The translations under genes and the position numbers were made by a program. The notes beneath the pieces were generated by a model, which saw only the letters and a list, made by a program, of their open reading frames with translations, had not been told where the DNA came from and did no database searches. Shown piece by piece: positions 2 through 49,496 of a stretch of 64,000 nt of DNA (position 1 is its first letter; each line of letters opens with the position of its first letter). The DNA is from Nitrospirota bacterium. GTDB taxonomy: Bacteria > JACPQY01. The stretch is taken from positions 1-64,000 of the forward strand of contig JACPAV010000010.1 of NCBI GenBank assembly GCA_016180645.1, written 5' to 3'.

Positions 2-3000
2 GATCCTAATTCAAACGATTTCGGCGACCTCAACGTGGTGGAGTGGAGGGGTACCGTCTACACGACCCTCGCGGACTGGCAGGGGTCCGGCAACGGCTTT
101 GACGCGAATGCCACGGAGGGCGCCCCGCAGTTCATCAGCACGCAGGCTCCATTCGATTTTCACGAGCGGTCCAACTTTGGAACGTGGTGCCCCTGCGGGA
201 TGCAGGACGACCCCCTCGACGGCTATCCGGCCACTCCGATCTGCAACGGCTGCTCCGCGGGTGTGAACGCGGCCTGTGACCGGACCACCGCAGACCCCGA
301 TTGCTGGTTCACCTTCTCCAACCATTCCCTGGCCATCGATACCGGAGCGAACGCCGGTTCATACACCAGCTTCTCGAATGAAGTGAAGGACAACGGCGGA
401 CGGCGGAACGCCGGCCGCTACGGGGATACCACCGAGGCCTCCCTCTCCGGCTGTCTCACCTTCGACAACTCCTGGGTGGGGAAGACGAACACGTCGTGGA
501 GCACGGCGAGCAACTGGTCCACGGCGGGCGTACCCGGCGCGGGCCAGGCCGTCTGCATCGGCGACCCCGCCGGCTTCGCGAACAATCCGATCCTTAACGC
601 GGACAGCATCATCGGCTCGCTCACCGTCCGCTCCGCATTCGGGTCCGGGCTTCTCGCCGGGGTCCTCGTCATGGACAATGCGAGCGGCACGGGAGGCGGC
701 GTCTGCGGAGGCGCCACGCGGGATTGCATTCTCACCGCGACGGGTAGTGTCGATTTGCAGACCGGCGCGACGCTCACCTTCACGGCAGGCGACGCGGGAC
801 GCCTGCGTATCGGGCGCAACTTCACCCAAACCGGCGCCTTCGGCACGAACAGCGGAACGGTTGAACTCTGCGCGGGCGCCGATGACGCCGCCGTGCCTGG
901 AAATCCGGATTGCGGCACGGCCGCAACACAGTGCATCGACGCCTCGGGCGATTTCTGGACGCTCAAAGTGACGAACGCGCTCGGCGCCTCCGCCGCCTGC
1001 CCGGCGCCGTGCGCGGGGTCCGGGTTCGTCTGCACCGGATCGAACTTCGGCATCAAGAACTCTTTCGACTCGAACGGCAAGTTCCTCGCGTCCGGTGGCG
1101 CCGTCACACTGAACGGCGCGAGCGCCGAAACGATCACCGGCGCGGCGGGCGACGCCTTCGCCACGCTCACGATCAACGATGCGAGCGATCCCGGCACGAT
1201 CACGATGGACTTCAACGGGACCGTTCAGGTGAATACGGCGCTGAACGTGGCCGACGGCAAGCTCTCGATGACGGGTCCCGATGTCCTCGCGTTTGCGAAC
1301 GGCGCCGCGCTCTCGGTGACCATGCCCGACGGATACCTCACGACGAATCTGACCGGCGGCAAGCCGACGATTCGCGGTCCCGTGGACGGCGGCAACAACT
1401 GCACGGGCACGTATGGCTTCAACCTGGACGGCACGGCGTCCACCCTCGACGTCAACGGCGTCGTCCTCCGCTGCCTCAATGACACGGGCCTGAATTTCTC
1501 GGCGGCCGCCTTCGCCCGATTCCAGGATGCCGAGTTCCTTCGCCCCGGACTGGTGGTCACCAACACCTCTCGCCACATCAGCCTCCCGGCGGCAGCCGCT
1601 TTCACCCTCATCGGTCCCACCTTCGACGGCAACGCCAACTACAACATCTACGAGGCGGCCGCGTCGACGGCCACGGTGACCGTGGCGGGCGGGCTCGGCG
1701 CGAAAGGTGAAGAGACGGAGTCGGGAGCCGACGGAACGGGCGAATCGAACGATTGCGACAACGGCGACGATACCTACAGCTCGGGGCTGTTTGGTTTCGC
1801 CGCGAACAACGGTTGCGGCGACAACTCCACCGCCTCGGAAGGAAAGATTTCGTGGACGTATCCCCATTTCACGTGGACGGGCACGATCAACTCCGATTGG
1901 AACAACCCCGGCAACTGGAACCGCATCGACAAGGGGGACTCCTGCACCACCGCCACCGAGCTCTGGCCGGGGCAGAGCGCGGTCTCCCAATACTGCGACG
2001 TCCTCATCATGGACCAGGCCAACGACCCGGTCATGAACGTGGACGGCATCACGCGCGACCTGACCGTGGCCAACAGCGGCGTTCTGAATCCAAACGGCAA
2101 AATCCTGTCCGTCTACGGCAACCTCACCAAGGATTCCAGCTCGACCTTCTCGTCCAGCGTCGACCTTCGGGCCGTGGGCGGCAACAACCAAAACTTCGTT
2201 TTCTCGGGCGCCTCCACGCAGACGATCTCCCAGCTCACCACGAACAAGACCGTGGGCAAAGCGATGACGCTCAACACGAGCCTGATTGTGAGCGGGACGA
2301 CAACGGTGACCTCGGGAACCTTCCGATTGGGCGGCGGAATCACGTTCGAGCCGCAGGCCGCCCTTACGGTGAGTTCGAACGGGACGTGGGATCTCGGATC
2401 GAGCTCCACCACGAAGCGCGGCAACAACGTCACCCTCGACGGGACCTTCGCGTCGGCTGGAACCAGTGTCATCACGACCAACGCGCGCAACGCCGTGGAA
2501 GCCTCCGCCGATCCCTGCGGCGCGCGCAATGCCTTCAATGTCGGCGCCGGCGGCGCCGGAACCCTGAACGTCTCCGGGCTGACGTTCCTCTGCGCCGATG
2601 CAAACGGGTTCCAGATCCAGAACGGCGTGACGCTCACCGCGCTCAACAACGTCACGTTCCGCCATGCCCCGTCGGGTGGGACCCATCTTACGATCAACCG
2701 CGCGGCCGGCTCGGCAGCGAAGACATTCACCGGCATGGCCTTCGATCCGACCTTCAACGAAACCGGCTGCGCCGGGGCCTCGGGTCAAATCGTCCGCAGC
2801 ACGGGCGGCGCGGGATCGGGAGCGATCACGATTCAAGACTACGAGTACGGCGGCACGTGTACCGACCCGGATGCGATGGATACCGAAACGACCATCGACA
2901 ATGTCTGGCGCAGCAAGACCAACTGGTCGGGCAACTGGCGGAAACGTCTTCCCGTCACGATCAACAATACGACCGGCGCCGCCTTCGACGAAGGCCGAAG

Positions 3001-29613: not shown

Positions 29614-30162
29614 TCAGTCCACCGTCGTGCGAATCCGGCGCTCGGCGAGGATTCGCCCTGAATTTCCAAGTCGCCGGCCCACCGAATCGATCGTGCGCTT
29701 GGTGCAGGATTCTGAATCTCCGCCATCCGCATCGACAAATTCGGTGTCGGTGACGCTGATGTAGGCCGTCCCGTTCGGAAGCTGCACTTGGCAAAGGGTC
29801 GGCTTGGCGGTAAGGGAGGACCCCGCGGCCTCGTGACAATCCGGAGTCTCGCCGGGTTGGCCCCAATCGCAGTCCGATTCGAGATTGTGCACGGCCCATG
29901 CCACCCCGGCCTCGGCGATGTAGAGCGCCTCCCCCGAATAGAGCTGCCTCAGGCTGGCCTCCTGCTCGGTCGTCGTGACGCGATAGAGCAGAAGCCCGAT
30001 CGCCGAAATGGCGATGAGGATGAAGAGGGTGGTGATGAGGTTGATGCCTCTGCTGCCAAGAGTTCCTGGTTCCTGGTTCCTGGTTCCTGGTTGCGGAGAG
30101 AGTGTCTCCTTCTTGTTCCTTCCAGGAACGAGGAACTTGCCACCAGGAACTTCTTGAATCAT
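29614..30162 (-). CDS. Minor pilin, PilX/MshP/GspK-like
   Basis: G/INLITTLFILIAISAIGL without Glu5, then EALYIAEAGVAWA; ATGA overlap with the upstream gene; repeat-derived leader. Confidence 0.8.
   Translation of the reverse strand: MIQEVPGGKFLVPGRNKKETLSPQPGTRNQEPGTLGSRGINLITTLFILIAISAIGLLLYRVTTTEQEASLRQLYSGEALYIAEAGVAWAVHNLESDCDWGQPGETPDCHEAAGSSLTAKPTLCQVQLPNGTAYISVTDTEFVDADGGDSESCTKRTIDSVGRRLGNSGRILAERRIRTTVD
30062..30152. repeat. 91-bp palindromic element, copy 1 (GTTCCTG arm / spacer / CAGGAAC arm)
   Basis: 88/91 identical to 30772-30862. Confidence 0.95.
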
Positions 30163-30869
30163 CGCTCCGCCAAATCCCTCGGAAAGACGCTCGTTCGGAG
30201 CGTGACGTTGCGCAGGGGGTCCGTGGTGCTCGTCCCGCGGCGAAGCTGGAGCTCGATCTGGACCCGCCAGATGAAACACATGTCGGCGGCGGCCAGCGCC
30301 CCGTCTGGAATCTGGGTCCCATTGTAGCGATAGTATTCGAATAGGTCCGAGTTGACCACGTTCCGGGCAAGGGCTTCCCACGAGGTGCAGGCGTCGCAGG
30401 CGACGGCGCCGACCGCCGCGGCGGTGCCCCGCTCGAGGGTCGTGCCGTTCTTGCGGTAACACACGCGGGGAGTGTCGGGGAGGTTTGAGCGGAACTCGAA
30501 CTGGTCGTCCTTTGCGCAGAGAACGTCGGTCTCGGGCGCGCTGGTGGCACAGCCCGCGGGAACGGGGAGGGTGTTGTCGGAGTCCGAAAGCATCCGGATA
30601 TCCCGCGTCATCTTCTCCAATGCCTCCATCCCCTCCTTCACCATGTCGCGCCGCTCGGCCTGCGCGAGCCCGCCGCGGATGCCTTGGGAAACGATCAGTC
30701 CGAGCACGCCGGAGAGGGCGATCGCGAGGACGATGACGAGCACGAGTTCCAGCAAGGTGAAACCGGAAAAGGTTCCTGGTTCCGGGTTCCTGGTTCCGGG
30801 TTGAGGAGAGAGTGTCTCCTTCTTGTTCCTTCCAGGAACGAGGAACTTGCCACCAGGAACTTTCTTCAC
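30159..30869 (-). CDS. Minor pilin, PilW/MshO/GspJ-like
   Basis: G/FTLLELVLVIVL...ALEKMTRDIR; GTG start in a GTGA overlap. Confidence 0.85.
   Translation of the reverse strand: MKKVPGGKFLVPGRNKKETLSPQPGTRNPEPGTFSGFTLLELVLVIVLAIALSGVLGLIVSQGIRGGLAQAERRDMVKEGMEALEKMTRDIRMLSDSDNTLPVPAGCATSAPETDVLCAKDDQFEFRSNLPDTPRVCYRKNGTTLERGTAAAVGAVACDACTSWEALARNVVNSDLFEYYRYNGTQIPDGALAAADMCFIWRVQIELQLRRGTSTTDPLRNVTLRTSVFPRDLAER
30772..30862. repeat. 91-bp palindromic element, copy 2
   Basis: Near-identical to 30062-30152; encodes the prepilin leader. Confidence 0.95.
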
Positions 30870-31621
30870 CGGTTGACCACCATCGTCGTCAGATCGATGT
30901 AGGCCTGGTCCTTGGTCGTCCCGCCCCACGAGATCCGGACCGAGATGTACTTGAGATCGGCGTTGCCGGTGCCGGGGAAAGTGGACGACGAGTAGGTGGT
31001 GCCGTCGGAGGCGGGATAGCAGGTGCCGAAACATTGCCCGCTGCATGTCCCGTATCCTTTTCCGGACGTGTAGCAGACGGTGACGCGCTCGCGGAAATCG
31101 GAATAGTAGGAAATCGTCGTGCACGTGTTGTCGGCGATCAGGCCGACCCGATCCGTCCCCCCTCCCCCAAGGGGTGGGCAGCCGTCGATTTCGCTGTCCA
31201 TGCCGTCGTAGTCATCGATATCGGTAAAGGGGAGGGACAGGGCGCCGCCGCCGTCGCGCGACTTGTTTGTTTCAGGACCGAGTCCCATCGCATCCGTCAC
31301 CGGACTCGTGCACGTGCAGTAGGTCCCGACGGCCGGGCAGGTGTCCGGCGGCGGACAGTCCACTTGCGCCGACGTTGCCGAGATGTAGTTGTCCCACTTG
31401 TGCGAGAGGATTTCCTCCATGAGGTCTTGGCCCAGGGCGTAGGCTCGATTGTAGCTCTCCACCTGAACGCTGAGTTTCTTGCTCTGCCATATCGGGCGGA
31501 GGGCGACCACGAGGCCGACGGTGAGGAGGACGATCACCACGACCAATTCGATTAGAGTGACCCCTGAAAAGGTTCCTGGTTCCTGGTTCCTGGTTTCGGG
31601 TCCCTGGGCTTTTGACGACAT
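30866..31621 (-). CDS. Minor pilin, PilV/MshD/GspI-like
   Basis: G/VTLIELVVVIVL; LGQDLMEEILS and FTDIDDYDG resemble MshD-type motifs. Confidence 0.85.
   Translation of the reverse strand: MSSKAQGPETRNQEPGTFSGVTLIELVVVIVLLTVGLVVALRPIWQSKKLSVQVESYNRAYALGQDLMEEILSHKWDNYISATSAQVDCPPPDTCPAVGTYCTCTSPVTDAMGLGPETNKSRDGGGALSLPFTDIDDYDGMDSEIDGCPPLGGGGTDRVGLIADNTCTTISYYSDFRERVTVCYTSGKGYGTCSGQCFGTCYPASDGTTYSSSTFPGTGNADLKYISVRISWGGTTKDQAYIDLTTMVVNR
31571..31607. repeat. (GGTTCCT)n heptamer array in prepilin leader
   Basis: ggttcct x3 plus degenerate units; reads RNQEPGT on the minus strand. Confidence 0.9.
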
Positions 31622-37849: not shown

Positions 37850-38523
37850 TGGCGGCCAAGGTCGATCTTCGGGTGCAGTTTTTTCGCCTGCCCGGTCCGG
37901 CTCGGTATGGTTTGGCGGCTTCGGTATCGGTGATCGCCTTCGCCATTTTCTACTTTTCCGTTTTCATGGGTCAGCAGGGGAAGATACGCAACCTCCAGGC
38001 GGTGCTCGCTCAGAAGCAGCAGGCGAATCTCATGAACCGGCATGTCGAGCAGGAGCTTCCCCGGCTCAAACAGGTGGTCAAGGATCTGGAGGCGCAGATC
38101 AATGCAGGGCTGGCCGAGCTTCCCAACGAGAAGGAAGTTCCTCAATTGATTAAGGACCTCGAGAATCTGGCGCTCAAGCTCCGCATGAAGGTCTTTTACA
38201 TGAAACTTCAGAATGAAGTGGCGAAAGGATTCTATGCGGAGGTCCCCGTGGAGGTGAAGATCCGCGGCGCCTATCACAACACGGCAATCTTCTTCGACGA
38301 GATCAGCCGGTTTGCCAGAATCATCAGCATGACGAACATTCAGATCGGGCAGGTGACGAAGGACAAGGAAGGGAGTCCGCTCGTCACGACGTCTTGCCAG
38401 GCCACGACGTTTCGGTATCTGCCAAGCACCTTGCCCCAGGCGCCGGGTACGCCTTCAGGCGCGGGAGGGGGCGACCCAACTCCGAGTGCAGGGAAGCACG
38501 ACAGTGGCTCACAAGAGTTATAG
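37849..38523 (+). CDS. pilO: Type IV pilus assembly protein PilO
   Basis: LPNEKEVPQLI, FYAEVPV, GAYHNTAIFFDEI, ATTFRY. Confidence 0.93.
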   Translation: MAAKVDLRVQFFRLPGPARYGLAASVSVIAFAIFYFSVFMGQQGKIRNLQAVLAQKQQANLMNRHVEQELPRLKQVVKDLEAQINAGLAELPNEKEVPQLIKDLENLALKLRMKVFYMKLQNEVAKGFYAEVPVEVKIRGAYHNTAIFFDEISRFARIISMTNIQIGQVTKDKEGSPLVTTSCQATTFRYLPSTLPQAPGTPSGAGGGDPTPSAGKHDSGSQEL

Positions 38524-38989
38524 CCCGGCGCTCCCCATCCTGGTCCTTCTCGGCCTCGTGCTGGGTTCGTGCAAGGGGAAACAGCCGCCCGCGCCGGTCA
38601 TGGCTCCCTCTCAGGCCGCCCGACCGCCCGAACTGCGCGAGGAAACTCCGAATGCGGTGAAACGGAGATACCGGTATGTTCCTGAAAATAAGCGTGATCC
38701 ATTCCGGACGTACGTCGAGGCGGCTGAAGTGGTGGGGGCGCGGGATTGCGGCCTGAAGTATCCACGCGAGAATTTCAAGTTGGTCGGCATCATGTGGGGC
38801 GATGTCGCTATAGCGGCGTTTGAAGATGAAGCCGGCGAGGGCTGCTTTCTAAGGGTGGGAGACCGACTGGGAAAGGAGAAAACAGTCATCAGAGAAATCC
38901 TGTTCGATCACGTCGTCGTGGTCGAAAAGCCTCTGGGAATTGGACCGGAAATCTCTCATGAGATGTGGCTCAATGAAGCGGCGAAGTAG
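38504..38989 (+). CDS. pilP: Type IV pilus lipoprotein PilP
   Basis: Lipobox LGS/C, YxPxxKRDPF, KLVGIMWG. Confidence 0.9.
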   Translation: MAHKSYSPALPILVLLGLVLGSCKGKQPPAPVMAPSQAARPPELREETPNAVKRRYRYVPENKRDPFRTYVEAAEVVGARDCGLKYPRENFKLVGIMWGDVAIAAFEDEAGEGCFLRVGDRLGKEKTVIREILFDHVVVVEKPLGIGPEISHEMWLNEAAK

Positions 38990-41168
38990 CTTCGTGGCGC
39001 GAGGCGCGTGGCGCGTGGCGCGGGTCCTGGGGTCTTTTCTTTTTACATTCTTATTCACGATTCACGATTCACGACTCACGACTTACGACCCCCACGATGG
39101 GGGAAGTGCCGCGAGAGGGCAGGAGCCCGGAGCGGCCGGCTCACGACTTGCGACTTACGACTTCCGACTCACGACCCCCCCCGCCTGGGCCCAGGACGAA
39201 GATGAGGAGGAACTGGAGGAATTGGACGAGGTGGAAGAGCCTTCCGAACCTGCTCCATCGGCCCCTTCGCCCAAAGCGGAGCCCTCGCCTGGCGGCAAAG
39301 ACAAGACGACGGAGGCCGGTGAAACTCCGGGCGGCGGTGATGAGGAGGCCGATGAGGACGAGGAGTTGGAGGAAGTCGAGGAGGATGCCTCCGGTCGGGC
39401 GAAAACGCCCGCTCCGGTCGGATTGAACGTGGACAGGATTGACTTCAAGAAAGAAGAGGGGTGGGCGCGCATCGTGGTGACCTGCTCGGCCCCCGTCACG
39501 TACCAGACGTCCCAGATCGAGGCGAAGGCGGTGGCTCTCGATATCCAGGGAGCGATGCTTAAGCCGGACCTCCAAAGGATTCTTGACGTCACCGCGTTTC
39601 AGAGCGTGGTGCATGCCATCGTACCGACTCAATTGCAGGGCGCGCCGAATCCAGTGGTTAGGGTCTTGGCCTCTCTGATGCAGCCGGCGGCGTTTCAAGT
39701 CGATGCGAAGGGAAGAACGCTCCTGTTCTCCTTCAAGGAGCCACCGGGAGGGGTCGCGCCCGGGCCGGCCCAACTGGCCGGGGAGATCAACATCACCGAG
39801 GAGTCGTCGGATCGCCGGAAAGTTTTTACGGGTCCCCGGATTTCCCTCGATTTCAAGGAGATCGATATCGACAACGTTCTCCGGCTCCTGGCGGATGTCA
39901 CCGGGATCAACATTGTGGCCGACGATGACGTGCAGGGGAAAATTACCATCAAGCTGAGCGACGTTCCGGCGGACCAGGCGCTGGATGTGGTGCTCGAGAC
40001 GAAGGGGCTTGGGCGCGTGGAGATCGGCGATCGAATCTTCCGGATCGCGCTAAAGACGCGTCTCGCGGAGGAGATGTCGAAGAAGGTGGAGGCCAAGAAA
40101 GCGGAAGAGAAGGCGGAGCCGTTGGTGACGAAAGTAGTGGCGGTGAATTATGCTTCGGCAGCTGAATTCGAAGGATTGATCAAGGACTCCATCCTGACGG
40201 AACGCGGCAAGATCAAGGTCGACACTCGTTCCAACACGATTGTCGTCAAGGATGTGAACAAGGCCGTCGCCGAGGCGATCACCCTTGTTCGTCGGCTGGA
40301 CATCCAGACCCCCCAAGTGCTGATCGACACCAAGATTGTCGAGGCGACCACCAATTTCCTTCGCACCGTCGGCGCCCAACTGGGCGCCACTTTGAATCTG
40401 GATCAGGCGCGGGGGGTGGCGATGGGTCCGGTAACGGCGGCTCAAGTGGGAGGCGCGGGGGTGACTGGGACGACGGTCCCTTCCCTGAACAACAACTTTC
40501 TGGTGGACTTTCCGGCTGGAGAAATCGGCGCCGGTCGGGGCAGTGGGATAGGGCTTTCGCTGGGCACACTGGGAAACTTTGCCACGGTCAACTTCATTCT
40601 GTCGGCACTGAAGGAATCGGGTGAAGGCAGGGTCGTGGCCAGCCCTCGCGTGACCAGCCTGGACAACAAGGAGGCCATGATTCTTCAGGGCGAAGCGATC
40701 CATATCTTGACCGTGACGGCCCAAGGCTCCGCCGTGCAGGAAATCGAGGCGGTGCTCCGTCTTAGGGTCACACCCCACATCACAACGGATGGAAGTGTTT
40801 ATCTCAAGATCAAGCTGGAACGGAACGAAGCCGATTTCAGTCGACTGGTGGCGGGAATCCCCAACATCATCAGGCGTGAGGCCGAAGCGGAGCTTCTCGT
40901 CCGGAACGGCGAAACGGTGGTCATAGGGGGTGTACATACGCGGATCGCGCGGAAGGCGAAATCCGGCGTCCCCATCTTGTCCGACATTCCAATCATCGGT
41001 ATGCTGTTTAGAAACAGTCAGAGAAGGGAGTCGTCGGATGAACTGGTGATGTTCCTGACTCCGCGAGTGCTCAATTTGCAGAATATCGAAGCTGTCGAGA
41101 CCATCGCCGAGCAGTCGGAAGAGGAGGCACTGAAGGAAATGAAGAAAGACGTCAGCATGGCCAGATAG
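38973..41168 (+). CDS. pilQ: Type IV pilus secretin PilQ (acidic linker, AMIN-like domain, secretin core)
   Basis: [66 protein letters not shown]. Confidence 0.95.
38993..39175. repeat. Composite heptamer arrays (CGTGGCG)x4 and (TCACGAY)n in the pilQ signal sequence
   Basis: Left arm 38993-39020; right arms 39055-39088 and 39141-39175. Confidence 0.9.
39085..39146. repeat. 62-bp REP/MITE-like double-hairpin element, copy 1
   Basis: 58/62 identical to 49431-49492; hairpins CCCCC-N5-GGGGG and GGGC-AGGA-GCCC. Confidence 0.9.
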
Positions 41169-43917: not shown

Positions 43918-45012
43918 ATGCTGAAGGAACGTATCGCCGTGCTCATGAGCGGCGGAGTCGACAGCTCCGTCGCCGCCGCCCTGCTCAAGGAACAGGGACA
44001 TGACCCTATCGGCCTCACCTACAACATCGGTCCCTCGCGAGTTCACGGAATCGCGGGTTCACGGGATCACGGTTCACGCTGCTGCGGCATGGACGACATG
44101 ACCGATGCCGCGACCATCGCATCCCAACTTGGAATTCCCCACTATGTCCTCAATGTCCGGGATTCGTTCGCGCGCGGGGTCATCGGAGATTTCGTCGAGA
44201 GCTACCTGAAGGGCGAAACTCCGCTGCCCTGCGCCCACTGCAACACGCGGGTGAAGTGGGGAGAAATGGCCGATCGGGCCAGGGAGATGGGGGCGAGCCG
44301 CATGGCCACGGGGCACTATGCAAAAGTCGATTGGGATGCGTCGCGAGGCCGGCACGTATTGAAGCGGGCCATGGATCTTGAGAAGGATCAGTCCTACTTT
44401 CTTTTCGGCCTCAGCCAGGAGCAACTTGCGTCCGCGATCTTTCCGCTTGGGGACCTCACCAAGCCCGAAGTTCGTGAGCGCGCCGAGGCGTTGGGGTTGG
44501 TCGTCTCCGACAAGAAGGACAGCCAGGAGCTTTGCTTCGTTTCCTCCGGCCACTACTCCGAAGTCATTGCGCCTCACGCCTCACGCCTCACGCCTCACGC
44601 CGCCGGAGAGATTGTGGATGTCTCCGGCGCCGTCCTCGGCACTCACGACGGCTTCTTCAAATTCACCGTGGGGCAGCGGCGGGGTCTCGGACTGAACGGC
44701 GGACCTTACTACGTGAAATCCATCGATTCCGCCACGAGGAAGGTCGTGGTCGGCAACGCGGATTCCACATTGACCGACAGCCTGACGGCTCGTGATCCCA
44801 ATCTGATCGGCTACGAGTCTTGGGAGTCAGTGGGGAGGGTTCGCGCCCGAGTTCGATACCGGCACAAAGGCGAATGGGGTTCGGTGCGATGGGACGGCCA
44901 AAGACTGAAGGTGGAGTTTGAAAATCCGGTTCGAGCCGTTGCGCCGGGGCAAGCCGTGGTCTTCTACCGCGAGGATGAAATCGTGGGCGGAGCGTGGATC
45001 ACACCGGGATGA
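43918..45012 (+). CDS. mnmA: tRNA 2-thiouridylase
   Basis: MSGGVDSS, TPLPCAHCN, ATGHYA, KDQSYFL, DSQELCF, GQRRGLG, APGQAVVFY. Confidence 0.97.
   Translation: MLKERIAVLMSGGVDSSVAAALLKEQGHDPIGLTYNIGPSRVHGIAGSRDHGSRCCGMDDMTDAATIASQLGIPHYVLNVRDSFARGVIGDFVESYLKGETPLPCAHCNTRVKWGEMADRAREMGASRMATGHYAKVDWDASRGRHVLKRAMDLEKDQSYFLFGLSQEQLASAIFPLGDLTKPEVRERAEALGLVVSDKKDSQELCFVSSGHYSEVIAPHASRLTPHAAGEIVDVSGAVLGTHDGFFKFTVGQRRGLGLNGGPYYVKSIDSATRKVVVGNADSTLTDSLTARDPNLIGYESWESVGRVRARVRYRHKGEWGSVRWDGQRLKVEFENPVRAVAPGQAVVFYREDEIVGGAWITPG
44571..44601. repeat. (TCACGCC)x4 in frame within mnmA
   Basis: Encodes APHASRLTPHA just before GEIVD. Confidence 0.9.
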
Positions 45013-47383: not shown

Positions 47384-49081
<1,698 letters not shown>

Positions 49082-49412: not shown

Positions 49413-49496
49413 ATTCACGATTGACGATTCACGACCCCCAGGAAGGGGGAAGTGCCGCGGGAGGGCAGGAGCCCGGAGCGGCCGGTTCACGATTCA
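49413..49496. repeat. TCACGA heptamer array containing copy 2 of the 62-bp element (49431-49492)
   Basis: Matches 39085-39146; ends just before the SPOR gene ATG. Confidence 0.9.

Follow-up and report, generated by a model that had tools for sequence, protein, structure and literature searches.

The window analysed here, the whole stretch of 64,000 nucleotides, carries pilQ, the gene for a type IV pilus secretin (Table 1). The deduced protein contains AMIN, GspD N0/STN, Secretin_N and C-terminal Secretin domains, all of which scored above the Pfam cut-offs, and some 90 residues of acidic, low-complexity sequence precede the AMIN domain. The gene closes a pilM-to-pilQ row, with four ORFs upstream and aroC downstream, that matches the arrangement in a sister genome (G001, a Nitrospirae MAG) and places the protein among the type IV pilus secretins. 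pilM, aroC and the ORFs at the pilN-pilP positions are all open. The ORF that overlaps the pilQ start is called pilP by position only, because Pfam assigned it no family; it resembles the G001 ORF placed likewise upstream of pilQ. The closest orthologue is the G001 protein named type IV pilus secretin PilQ (62–65% identity). Among 5.8 billion proteins, none exceeded 65% identity to the PilQ of this genome, and the protein, species-genome and metagenome collections yielded no second strain. A search for sequencing runs found four DNA runs from one groundwater study, three of which may be the source of the window, and no RNA run.

Table 1. Features of the pilQ region and the second element copy (positions are those of the window).
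Feature	Position	Strand	Basis	Remarks
ORF in pilP position	38486..38989	+	ORF list	17-nt overlap with pilQ start
pilQ, type IV pilus secretin gene	38973..41168	+	Pfam domains and similarity to G001 PilQ	731 aa
CGTGGCG array	38993..39022	+	Tandem Repeats Finder	about 4.3 units, in n-region; encodes ten residues
PilQ h-region	39024..39062	+	translation	residues 18–30 (13 residues); last codons inside first 7-nt unit
Left array	39054..39088	+	sequence, Tandem Repeats Finder, CGA-spacing pattern	TTCACGA three times, CTCACGA, CTTACGA
51-nt two-hairpin dispersed element	39089..39139	+	blastn, nhmmer, covariance model	encodes 18 residues in pilQ frame
Right array	39140..39174	+	sequence, Tandem Repeats Finder, CGA-spacing pattern, flank phasing	CTCACGA, CTTGCGA, CTTACGA, CTTCCGA, CTCACGA
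Remnant of ancestral c-region	39175..39191	+	translation and G001 alignment	ends in AWA (39183-39191)
Second copy of the 51-nt element	49435..49485	+		TTCACGA-type flanking units; just 5′ of a 255-aa ORF

Translation from the ATG at 38973 reproduced exactly the N-terminal reading put forward in the original prediction, which had been made from the sequence alone. The protein starts with a normal n-region, with positive charges at K2, R3, R4, R10, R14 and R17, and a hydrophobic h-region within the range of about 7–15 residues expected for canonical Sec signal peptides processed by signal peptidase I. These are followed by about 40 extra residues and then by a ten-residue segment. The AWA tripeptide (residues 71–73) consequently lies 43 residues beyond the h-region instead of in the short c-region of a canonical signal, which ends in small residues at −3 and −1. 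When residues 29–66 are left out, a canonical n-h-c signal ending in AWA is obtained, as had been predicted. The signal peptide of G001 PilQ has 29 residues and its h-region leads, without any insert, directly into PRA/QEEELEE (the slash marks the cleavage site). Since that signal peptide is continuous, the extra residues represent an insertion that is peculiar to this genome. The mature G001 protein starts with QEEELEE, which aligns with a ten-residue segment of the PilQ described here, and the ancestral signal-peptidase site is presumed to lie after 39191, before QDEDEEE. Translation, repeat calls and the comparison with G001 thus support the view that the signal peptide was split by repeat-derived DNA. 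An alternative pilQ start 3′ of the insert was considered and rejected: the translation has no hydrophobic segment between the insert and the AMIN domain, and the resulting secretin would have no export signal.

The insert is made of five 7-nt units, a 51-nt element with two hairpins and five more 7-nt units. Its attribution to repeat arrays holds for both flanks but not for the middle part, which is a copy of the dispersed element. The ten flanking units fit the pattern YTNNCGA, and the left and right arrays share one phase. Tandem Repeats Finder reported period-7 arrays beside the element at 39053-39089 and 39143-39175, as well as the CGTGGCG array in the n-region (period 7, 91% matches, score 53), which belongs to direct-repeat family D3. 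A pattern of five CGA trinucleotides at 7-nt spacing matched the 64-kb window solely at 39058-39088 and 39144-39174; the expectation from shuffled sequences was 0.01 and none of 100 shuffles had two or more matches. At most three adjacent units are identical (the TTCACGA run), and the others differ from their neighbours. The ten units and the element add up to 121 nt. With one unit counted as ancestral, the in-frame gain between the h-region and the AWA site is 114 nt, or 38 codons. It had also been suggested that CGTG and CACG arms pair in this region. This was not upheld, as the minimum-energy fold of 38960-39200 leaves the arms unpaired and no such inverted repeat was reported. The fold is no more stable than those of shuffled sequences (z = +1.14; 175 of 200 shuffles folded at least as well).

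Arrays of this type are common in the genome, where 349 period-7 arrays with 127 unit types were found, 110 of them outside the gene calls made in the analysis. They crowd at the 5′ ends of genes: 70 of the 199 arrays located within gene calls occupy the first tenth of the call. In a genome-wide screen for genes put out of frame by an array, frames open over 100 codons or more adjoined the array on both sides in 127 in-frame cases and in 60 solely out-of-frame cases among the 349. Neighbouring tandem genes and units with stop codons give the same picture, and no conclusion was drawn from these numbers.

A covariance model built for the element matched exactly at 39089..39139 with 77.7 bits. 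The genome contains 32 copies on 21 contigs according to nhmmer, and the covariance model gave the same count; the length variants are 51, 52, 60 and 90 nt. The stems comprise 14 base pairs, and 97.1% of 349 cells were paired as compared with at most 55% when the partners were slid. Changes on both sides of a pair were found in 22 cells, while shuffles produced 6.0 ± 2.0 and in none of 500 was the observed value reached. Compensatory changes occur in five of the 14 pairs. The copy in pilQ departs from the family consensus solely at positions in the loop of hairpin 1, and since its stems are intact the insertion may be recent. G001 has a single copy of the element, and among 185,579 species genomes there was one further exact match, in a groundwater Nitrospirae MAG. 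Two different patterns yielded no element match in JGI metagenome contigs, and a search of 38950-39250 against Rfam 15 identified no family, the best match reaching 15.2 bits (E = 7.5) where the gathering score was 97.

Thirteen sense copies are located in 12 genes, including murD, sucD and dnaG, and all of them are in frame. Copies were assigned to genes because Pfam domains span or flank them or because they lie deep in very long ORFs. Eight of these copies are of 51 nt and five of 90 nt, and all 13 are open in the frame of the host gene. The G001 orthologues have clean gaps at the element sites in murD (17 aa), sucD (30 aa) and dnaG (32 aa), and the solved structures of MurD and SucD also lack the element-encoded residues. 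Two 52-nt copies are non-coding, one of them 17 nt after a tRNA-Cys gene and the other amid terminator-like hairpins. Copies whose length is not a multiple of three are therefore absent among the 13 in genes and make up 2 of the 8 at clearly intergenic positions, a statistically modest difference (Fisher p about 0.13). One reading frame is used by nine of the 13 in-gene copies and specifies a hydrophilic peptide rich in Gly, Ser, Ala and Pro. Mean Kyte-Doolittle values were −1.6, −0.8 and −1.7 for the sense frames and +0.2, −0.6 and −0.2 for the antisense frames. The frame bias could alternatively mirror the use of in-frame GAC codons as the preferred target.

A paralogous empty site in G001 shows that exactly 51 nt were inserted after CCGA. 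The 3′ end of the element is usually CGA and the left flank is GA. We infer that the element enters after a GA dinucleotide, mostly within CGA. Heptamer arrays whose units end in CGA are many such targets placed in a row. About one copy in three lies within a 7-nt array, and the units on either side of these copies keep one 7-nt phase. Copies occur singly or in direct tandem, not as inverted doublets. The element is co-oriented with the local gene in 28 of 32 cases, and the intergenic copies show the same bias. Targeting of one replication strand was rejected as its cause, since 17 copies had a positive and 15 a negative GC skew within ±25 kb. The orientation bias goes beyond what peptide tolerance alone would produce, so an RNA-level or transcription-linked property may be involved. 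Seven matches to PF01797, the Y1 transposase family, were found on contigs C25, C36, C46, C48 and C52; these enzymes are candidate mobilisers of the element, but the contigs that encode them have no copy of it.

Multi-copy dispersed hairpins that lie in frame in unrelated conserved genes and are missing from the orthologues resemble the palindromic elements of Rickettsia. Those repeats are described as inserting in frame into many unrelated genes, housekeeping genes included, at positions compatible with folding, where they are read as an extra peptide (PMC10969869). The likeness extends to the palindromic structure and to the in-frame location, here in 13 copies and 12 genes. There are also differences. 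The Rickettsia elements measure about 100–150 bp and the one described here 51 nt (60 or 90 nt in variants); each of the former specifies one conserved peptide, whereas all three sense frames are used in the latter; and about one third of the copies in this genome are embedded in 7-nt arrays. The host is also distinct: it is a groundwater bacterium that has not been cultivated, and its closest relative bears the name Nitrospirae. A relationship in sequence between the two kinds of element is not expected. We consider it probable (roughly 0.7) that the 51-nt element is selfish DNA akin to the Rickettsia palindromic elements and is transcribed and translated together with its host gene. The presence of the same repeat in at least 12 other genes makes the pilQ copy look like tolerated selfish DNA and not like an intervening sequence that is spliced out.

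Other groups of short repeats have some of these traits. REP elements are described as short dispersed repeats that form hairpins and have a conserved flank (PMC3116915). As in the REP/REPIN systems, which RAYT (Y1/HUH) transposases mobilise, the repeats of this genome are short, dispersed and hairpin-forming, and PF01797 proteins are encoded in it. REPs, however, are extragenic and flank their RAYT gene or cluster with it, at least 13 copies of the present element are in genes, the contigs with PF01797 matches have no copy, and REPINs are inverted doublets in contrast to the single or directly repeated copies found here. Regarding the arrays, Elhai et al. (2008) reportedly described in cyanobacteria both STRR, which are arrays of heptamers, and mobile repeats of very small size. 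In Geobacter metallireducens, heptanucleotides repeated four or five times in tandem form families with dozens of genic and intergenic sites, for which the authors of that study suggested regulatory roles (PMC2700814). The arrays described here belong to another taxon and consist of other units, and they differ in that the 51-nt hairpin element is found inside them and in phase.

The 5′ end of pilQ would accordingly carry a composite selfish insertion, a run of YTNNCGA heptamers split by a mobile 51-nt element. This insert is most likely transcribed and translated with pilQ, as the same element would be in murD, sucD, dnaG and nine or more further genes. We propose that it is tolerated because the peptide is hydrophilic and flexible and falls in a segment of the preprotein that is either removed or disordered. 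The n- and h-regions of PilQ are intact and would still direct export. The c-regions of signal peptides usually have 3–7 residues, and in one case that was tested processing was lost at 13 residues (PMC12190922). A 43-residue c-region is far outside known working signal peptides, and with AWA at that distance from the h-region the old site is probably no longer processed. Two of the options named in the original prediction may still apply, a long gap that is tolerated and the use of another cleavage site. For PilQ itself, two outcomes can be envisaged. Cleavage may take place at a cryptic site of low quality, such as the position after LTT (residues 35–37), seven residues past the h-region. 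Otherwise, the signal may act as an uncleaved anchor that leaves PilQ tethered to the inner membrane, in which case the tether would consist of the insert and the acidic low-complexity stretch ahead of the AMIN domain.

The same distance could have a harsher consequence, namely that the insertion disabled the export of PilQ and the gene is becoming a pseudogene, with the insert translated and the protein mislocalised or non-functional. Processing stopped in the tested case at a length well short of that found here, Arg34 is located four residues past the h-region, and the element copy, with intact stems and departures from the consensus solely in the loop of hairpin 1, may be recent. Against this, the other 658 codons of PilQ are intact and every domain is present, the reading frame has been kept through 121 nt of repeat DNA, the genes and ORFs around pilQ are open and essential genes tolerate the same element. 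Loss of export is therefore rather unlikely.

The heptamer arrays could also be thought of as a contingency locus, in which slipped-strand events alter the number of units, so that pilQ moves in and out of frame and the secretin is turned on or off. The model for such a mechanism is E. coli neuO, where 7-nt units in the 5′ coding region make translation dependent on a unit number that keeps the frame. The neuO tracts have 3–53 units, with 20 the commonest number, and their variation has been measured; the gene is read through solely when the number of units is divisible by three (PMC13001214). The pilQ arrays have in common with neuO a unit length that is not a multiple of three and a location in the 5′ coding region of a gene for a surface organelle, and the concentration of arrays at gene 5′ ends fits the same idea. 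Nevertheless, they have four or five imperfect units instead of a long tract of identical ones, with no more than three identical units in a row. Arrays of this kind are present at 349 places, 110 of them outside gene calls, and also adjoin the element in dnaG and comparable housekeeping genes, for which an on-off switch would make no sense. A role as a switch is hence improbable.

The original prediction had favoured the idea that arrays are excised like intervening sequences, so that the mRNA would lose the insert, or the ribosome would hop over it, and PilQ, MurD, SucD, DnaG and others would be made without it. Phage T4 gene 60 and the byp elements of yeast mitochondria are examples of programmed translational bypassing. 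Like the pilQ insert, they have a hairpin-containing insertion of about 50 nt within a coding sequence, and the length of the element is close to that of the gene 60 coding gap. The length of those gaps need not be divisible by three, and stop codons stand at their start or inside them, whereas the in-gene copies of the present element are multiples of three and open and the pilQ ORF is continuous. The only hints of excision or bypassing are the conserved two-hairpin structure with its compensatory changes and the co-orientation with transcription, which includes intergenic copies and is independent of GC skew; the GA at the left flank and the usual CGA at the 3′ end also look like matched boundary motifs. 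On the other side, the sole 52-nt copies are non-coding, the added heptamers of pilQ likewise total whole codons if one unit is ancestral, the hydrophilic frame is favoured, Rfam has no ribozyme or intron family in the region, and its folding is at the level of shuffled sequences. No mechanism is known by which bacteria would cut a 50-nt hairpin out of an mRNA and rejoin the ends. A length divisible by three, an open frame and a choice of frame would all be unneeded if the insert were removed or skipped, which makes excision or bypassing highly improbable. If it did take place, bacterial chromosomes would have their own equivalent of T4 gene 60 or of the byp elements of mitochondria.

If instead the element is translated selfish DNA, palindromic elements within genes are not confined to Rickettsia, and a much smaller, 51-nt form is present in a free-living groundwater lineage. 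Its targets there include the essential genes murD, dnaG and sucD and even a Sec signal peptide. The copy in pilQ would then be a natural experiment on the length of c-region that can be tolerated and on the function of a secretin while tethered to the inner membrane. The in-phase tie between the element and CGA-ending heptamers offers a handle on the origin of bacterial heptamer arrays and on their clustering at 5′ ends. The bias toward the orientation of transcription, which peptide tolerance alone does not explain, is of interest in itself. The second copy in the window is likewise associated with heptamers, as it is adjoined by an array that Tandem Repeats Finder located at 49413-49434.

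The translation of pilQ from the ATG at 38973 on the forward strand ([80 protein letters not shown]...) is identical to the reading on which the original prediction was based, namely that the signal peptide of PilQ is split by repeats and an insertion of ~40 amino acids, and that a normal Sec signal ending in AWA is left once the repeat-derived part is removed. Four ORFs in pilM-to-pilP positions precede the gene and chorismate synthase follows it. The genome that holds the window as its contig C54 (4.7 Mb, 65 contigs, 97% complete) was compared with 30 related genomes, among which the sister genome, G001, is the only member of the same family. The G001 PilQ, labelled by its source as PilQ of a Nitrospirae MAG, shares 62-65% identity with the protein studied here and has a signal peptide of 29 residues in which the h-region is followed directly by PRA/QEEELEE. 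Other PilQ homologues also start with short Sec or lipoprotein signals. Since the mature N-terminus ([10 protein letters not shown]) agrees with that of G001, whose signal lacks the insert, the ~40-residue stretch is an insertion peculiar to this genome. The extra residues fall between FLF and TTPPAWA, and residues 1-28 joined to residues 67-73 would form a textbook n-h-c signal. Both claims were thus borne out.

Tandem Repeats Finder located period-7 arrays at 38993-39022, 39053-39089, and 39143-39175. A pattern of five CGA triplets at 7-nt spacing has just two matches in the window, 39058-39088 and 39144-39174, against a shuffled expectation of 0.01. The insert had been taken to derive from such arrays, which holds for its two flanks but not for its middle, a copy of a dispersed 51-nt element. 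Ten 7-nt units plus 51 nt add up to an insert of 121 nt, of which 114 nt (38 codons) would be new if the ancestral gene already had one unit. The array in the n-region has about four units, again one plus three. Variation among the pilQ units is confined to positions 1, 3, and 4, while T2 and CGA are invariant, a pattern that suggests constraint or biased generation. The observation was confirmed and made more precise, and the interpretation first offered was supported in part. The proposed pairing of the two arrays through CGTG and CACG arms was rejected.

Coordinates of pilQ, its insert, and related repeats (positions are those of the window unless a contig is named)
Feature	Coordinates	Strand	Remarks
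pilQ	38973-41168	+	731 aa; type IV pilus secretin; Pfam AMIN, N0/STN, Secretin_N, Secretin
Left array, five 7-nt units	39054-39088	+	sequence
51-nt element copy	39089-39139	+	blastn, nhmmer, covariance model
Right array, five 7-nt units	39140-39174	+	same 7-nt phase as the left five
Element copy	49435-49485		
Period-7 arrays, examples	30062-30092, 30771-30802, 31571-31607, 44570-44601, 48770-48798		
Element, 90-nt forms	C6:13402-13491, C8:74464-74553, C11:33195-33284, C11:44217-44306, C10:56714-56803		39 extra nt within the second hairpin
Region with the single element copy of G001	G001 C40 (locus L081), 1484-1630		inside one of two nearby ~25-nt sequence copies; the other is the 'empty site'

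The same 32 copies of the element, distributed over 21 contigs, were recovered by blastn, nhmmer, and a covariance model alike. They comprise 24 copies of 51 nt, two of 52 nt, one of 60 nt, and five of 90 nt, and the element folds into two hairpins; the additional nucleotides of the longest form have their own stem potential. In 25 aligned short copies, standard pairs filled 97.1% of 349 cells, compared with at most 55% when the partners were slid, and both sides had changed in 22 cells versus 6.0 ± 2.0 after shuffling (none of 500 shuffles was as high). Compensatory changes were present at 5 of the 14 base pairs. No Rfam family matched the element. The sequence at its left flank ends in GA in 28 of the 32 copies, the exceptions being three GC and one AA. 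In G001, comparison of the filled site with the uninterrupted paralogous copy ~100 nt away revealed a clean 51-nt insertion after CCGA. Exact matches across 185,579 species genomes were limited to one, in a groundwater Nitrospirae MAG, and searches of JGI metagenome contigs with two different patterns found none. Two pairs of copies stand in direct tandem, offset by exactly one unit, at C40:58442-58543 (51+51 nt) and at C6:13351-13491 (51+90 nt), the second pair inside the gene for a Wza-like exporter, between the signal peptide and the first domain. The Y1/HUH transposase family PF01797, a candidate mobilizer of hairpin repeats, had seven matches on contigs C48, C46, C36, C25, and C52 (L071-L076), including a pair on C48 separated by 1.4 kb; none of the seven was near an element copy.

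A copy was considered to be in a gene when a Pfam domain spanned or flanked it or when it lay deep in a very long ORF. Thirteen sense copies, eight of 51 nt and five of 90 nt, are located within 12 genes: pilQ, murD, sucD, dnaG, and those for a DUF1329 protein, an alpha/beta hydrolase, ribonucleotide reductase, a C25-peptidase protein (2327 aa), an RCC1-repeat protein (1662 aa), the Wza-like exporter (two copies), an FG-GAP protein (1324 aa), and a thiolase-like protein. The host frame is open in all 13. The G001 orthologues have clean gaps at the element sites of MurD (17 aa), SucD (30 aa), and DnaG (32 aa), and these residues are also absent from the structures solved for MurD and SucD. One further copy, the fourteenth, lies antisense to its 346-aa ORF, which has no Pfam family. 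Flanking sequence and our own gene calls placed eight copies in intergenic DNA, including both 52-nt copies, one of which follows a tRNA-Cys gene at a distance of 17 nt while the other lies amid terminator-like hairpins; the ten other copies occupy either the ends of genes or ORFs that are unassigned. A look that was not systematic found no gene with its frame broken by a copy. At the N-terminus of the FG-GAP protein (C10:56448-60422, L031), GVRA repeat runs lie on either side of the copy and therefore represent a second, different short coding repeat associated with the element. Upstream of the tubulin domain, the ftsZ frame at C60:58332-60254 (L102) stays open for ~220 codons, and an element copy lies directly downstream of the TGA that ends the preceding gene.

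Tandem repeats in the genome most often have a period of seven, with 349 such arrays of at least three units and 127 unit types. Arrays are rarer in gene interiors than random sites (36% vs 57% lie where the frame is open for 100 codons or more to either side) and crowd at gene 5′ ends (70 of the 199 arrays inside rough gene calls are in the first tenth of the call); they are likewise concentrated in non-coding DNA. About 10 of the 32 element copies are embedded in arrays of units ending in CGA or CGC, and the units to the left and right of the copy keep the same phase. Such arrays also occur without the element, and they may serve as its repeated targets, a reading that does not explain the arrays' own origin. 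Excerpts of two papers describe tandem heptanucleotides within genes of Geobacter metallireducens (PMC2700814) and phase variation driven by heptanucleotide repeats in the 5′ coding region of E. coli neuO (PMC13001214). The latter precedent keeps alive the explanation that the pilQ arrays act as a phase switch, but it is the weaker one because the pilQ units are few and imperfect.

We favor the explanation that the insert would be translated with its host gene and that only harmless versions survive, the same behavior that an excerpt of PMC10969869 describes for the palindromic elements of Rickettsia. On this view, the feature adds a new and very small form to the palindromic selfish DNA that lives within genes, here coupled to heptamer arrays and carried by an uncultivated lineage. 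All size classes within genes are multiples of three and the only copies of other lengths are non-coding, a contrast of modest statistics (Fisher p ~0.13). One of the sense frames of the 90-nt form contains a TGA, and all five in-gene copies of this form are in one of the other two frames. The frame giving peptides of the D-P-Q/H-D-G-G-S-A-A type is used by 9 of the 13 in-gene copies, and the three sense frames are far more hydrophilic than the antisense ones, although GAC codons acting as targets could also cause the frame bias. These sizes, the whole-codon sum of the pilQ units, and the preference for a hydrophilic frame are indirect evidence, expected of a translated insert and not required if it were removed from the RNA or bypassed by the ribosome, an alternative that on this evidence is highly improbable in spite of one result on its side: 28 of the 32 copies, intergenic ones included, run in the direction of the gene that overlaps them or lies nearest (binomial p ~2e-5), a bias that bears no relation to GC skew, which is positive for 17 copies and negative for 15. 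Tolerance of the peptide does not account for the orientation of the intergenic copies; insertion linked to transcription, or some property at the RNA level, may lie behind it.

With both its n-region and its h-region undamaged, PilQ should still be targeted to Sec. The insert puts the AWA site 43 residues beyond the h-region; c-regions normally have 3-7 residues, and processing was lost at 13 in the case tested (PMC12190922). No start codon downstream of the insert could provide another signal. Three outcomes appear likely. Cleavage may occur at a weak nearby site, for which L-T-T at residues 35-37 is a candidate that fits the -3/-1 rule 7 residues past the h-region. Export may instead be impaired, or the signal-anchor may stay uncleaved, in which case the secretin would be tethered to the inner membrane by the insert and the ~90-residue acidic stretch preceding the AMIN domain, which starts at about residue 156.
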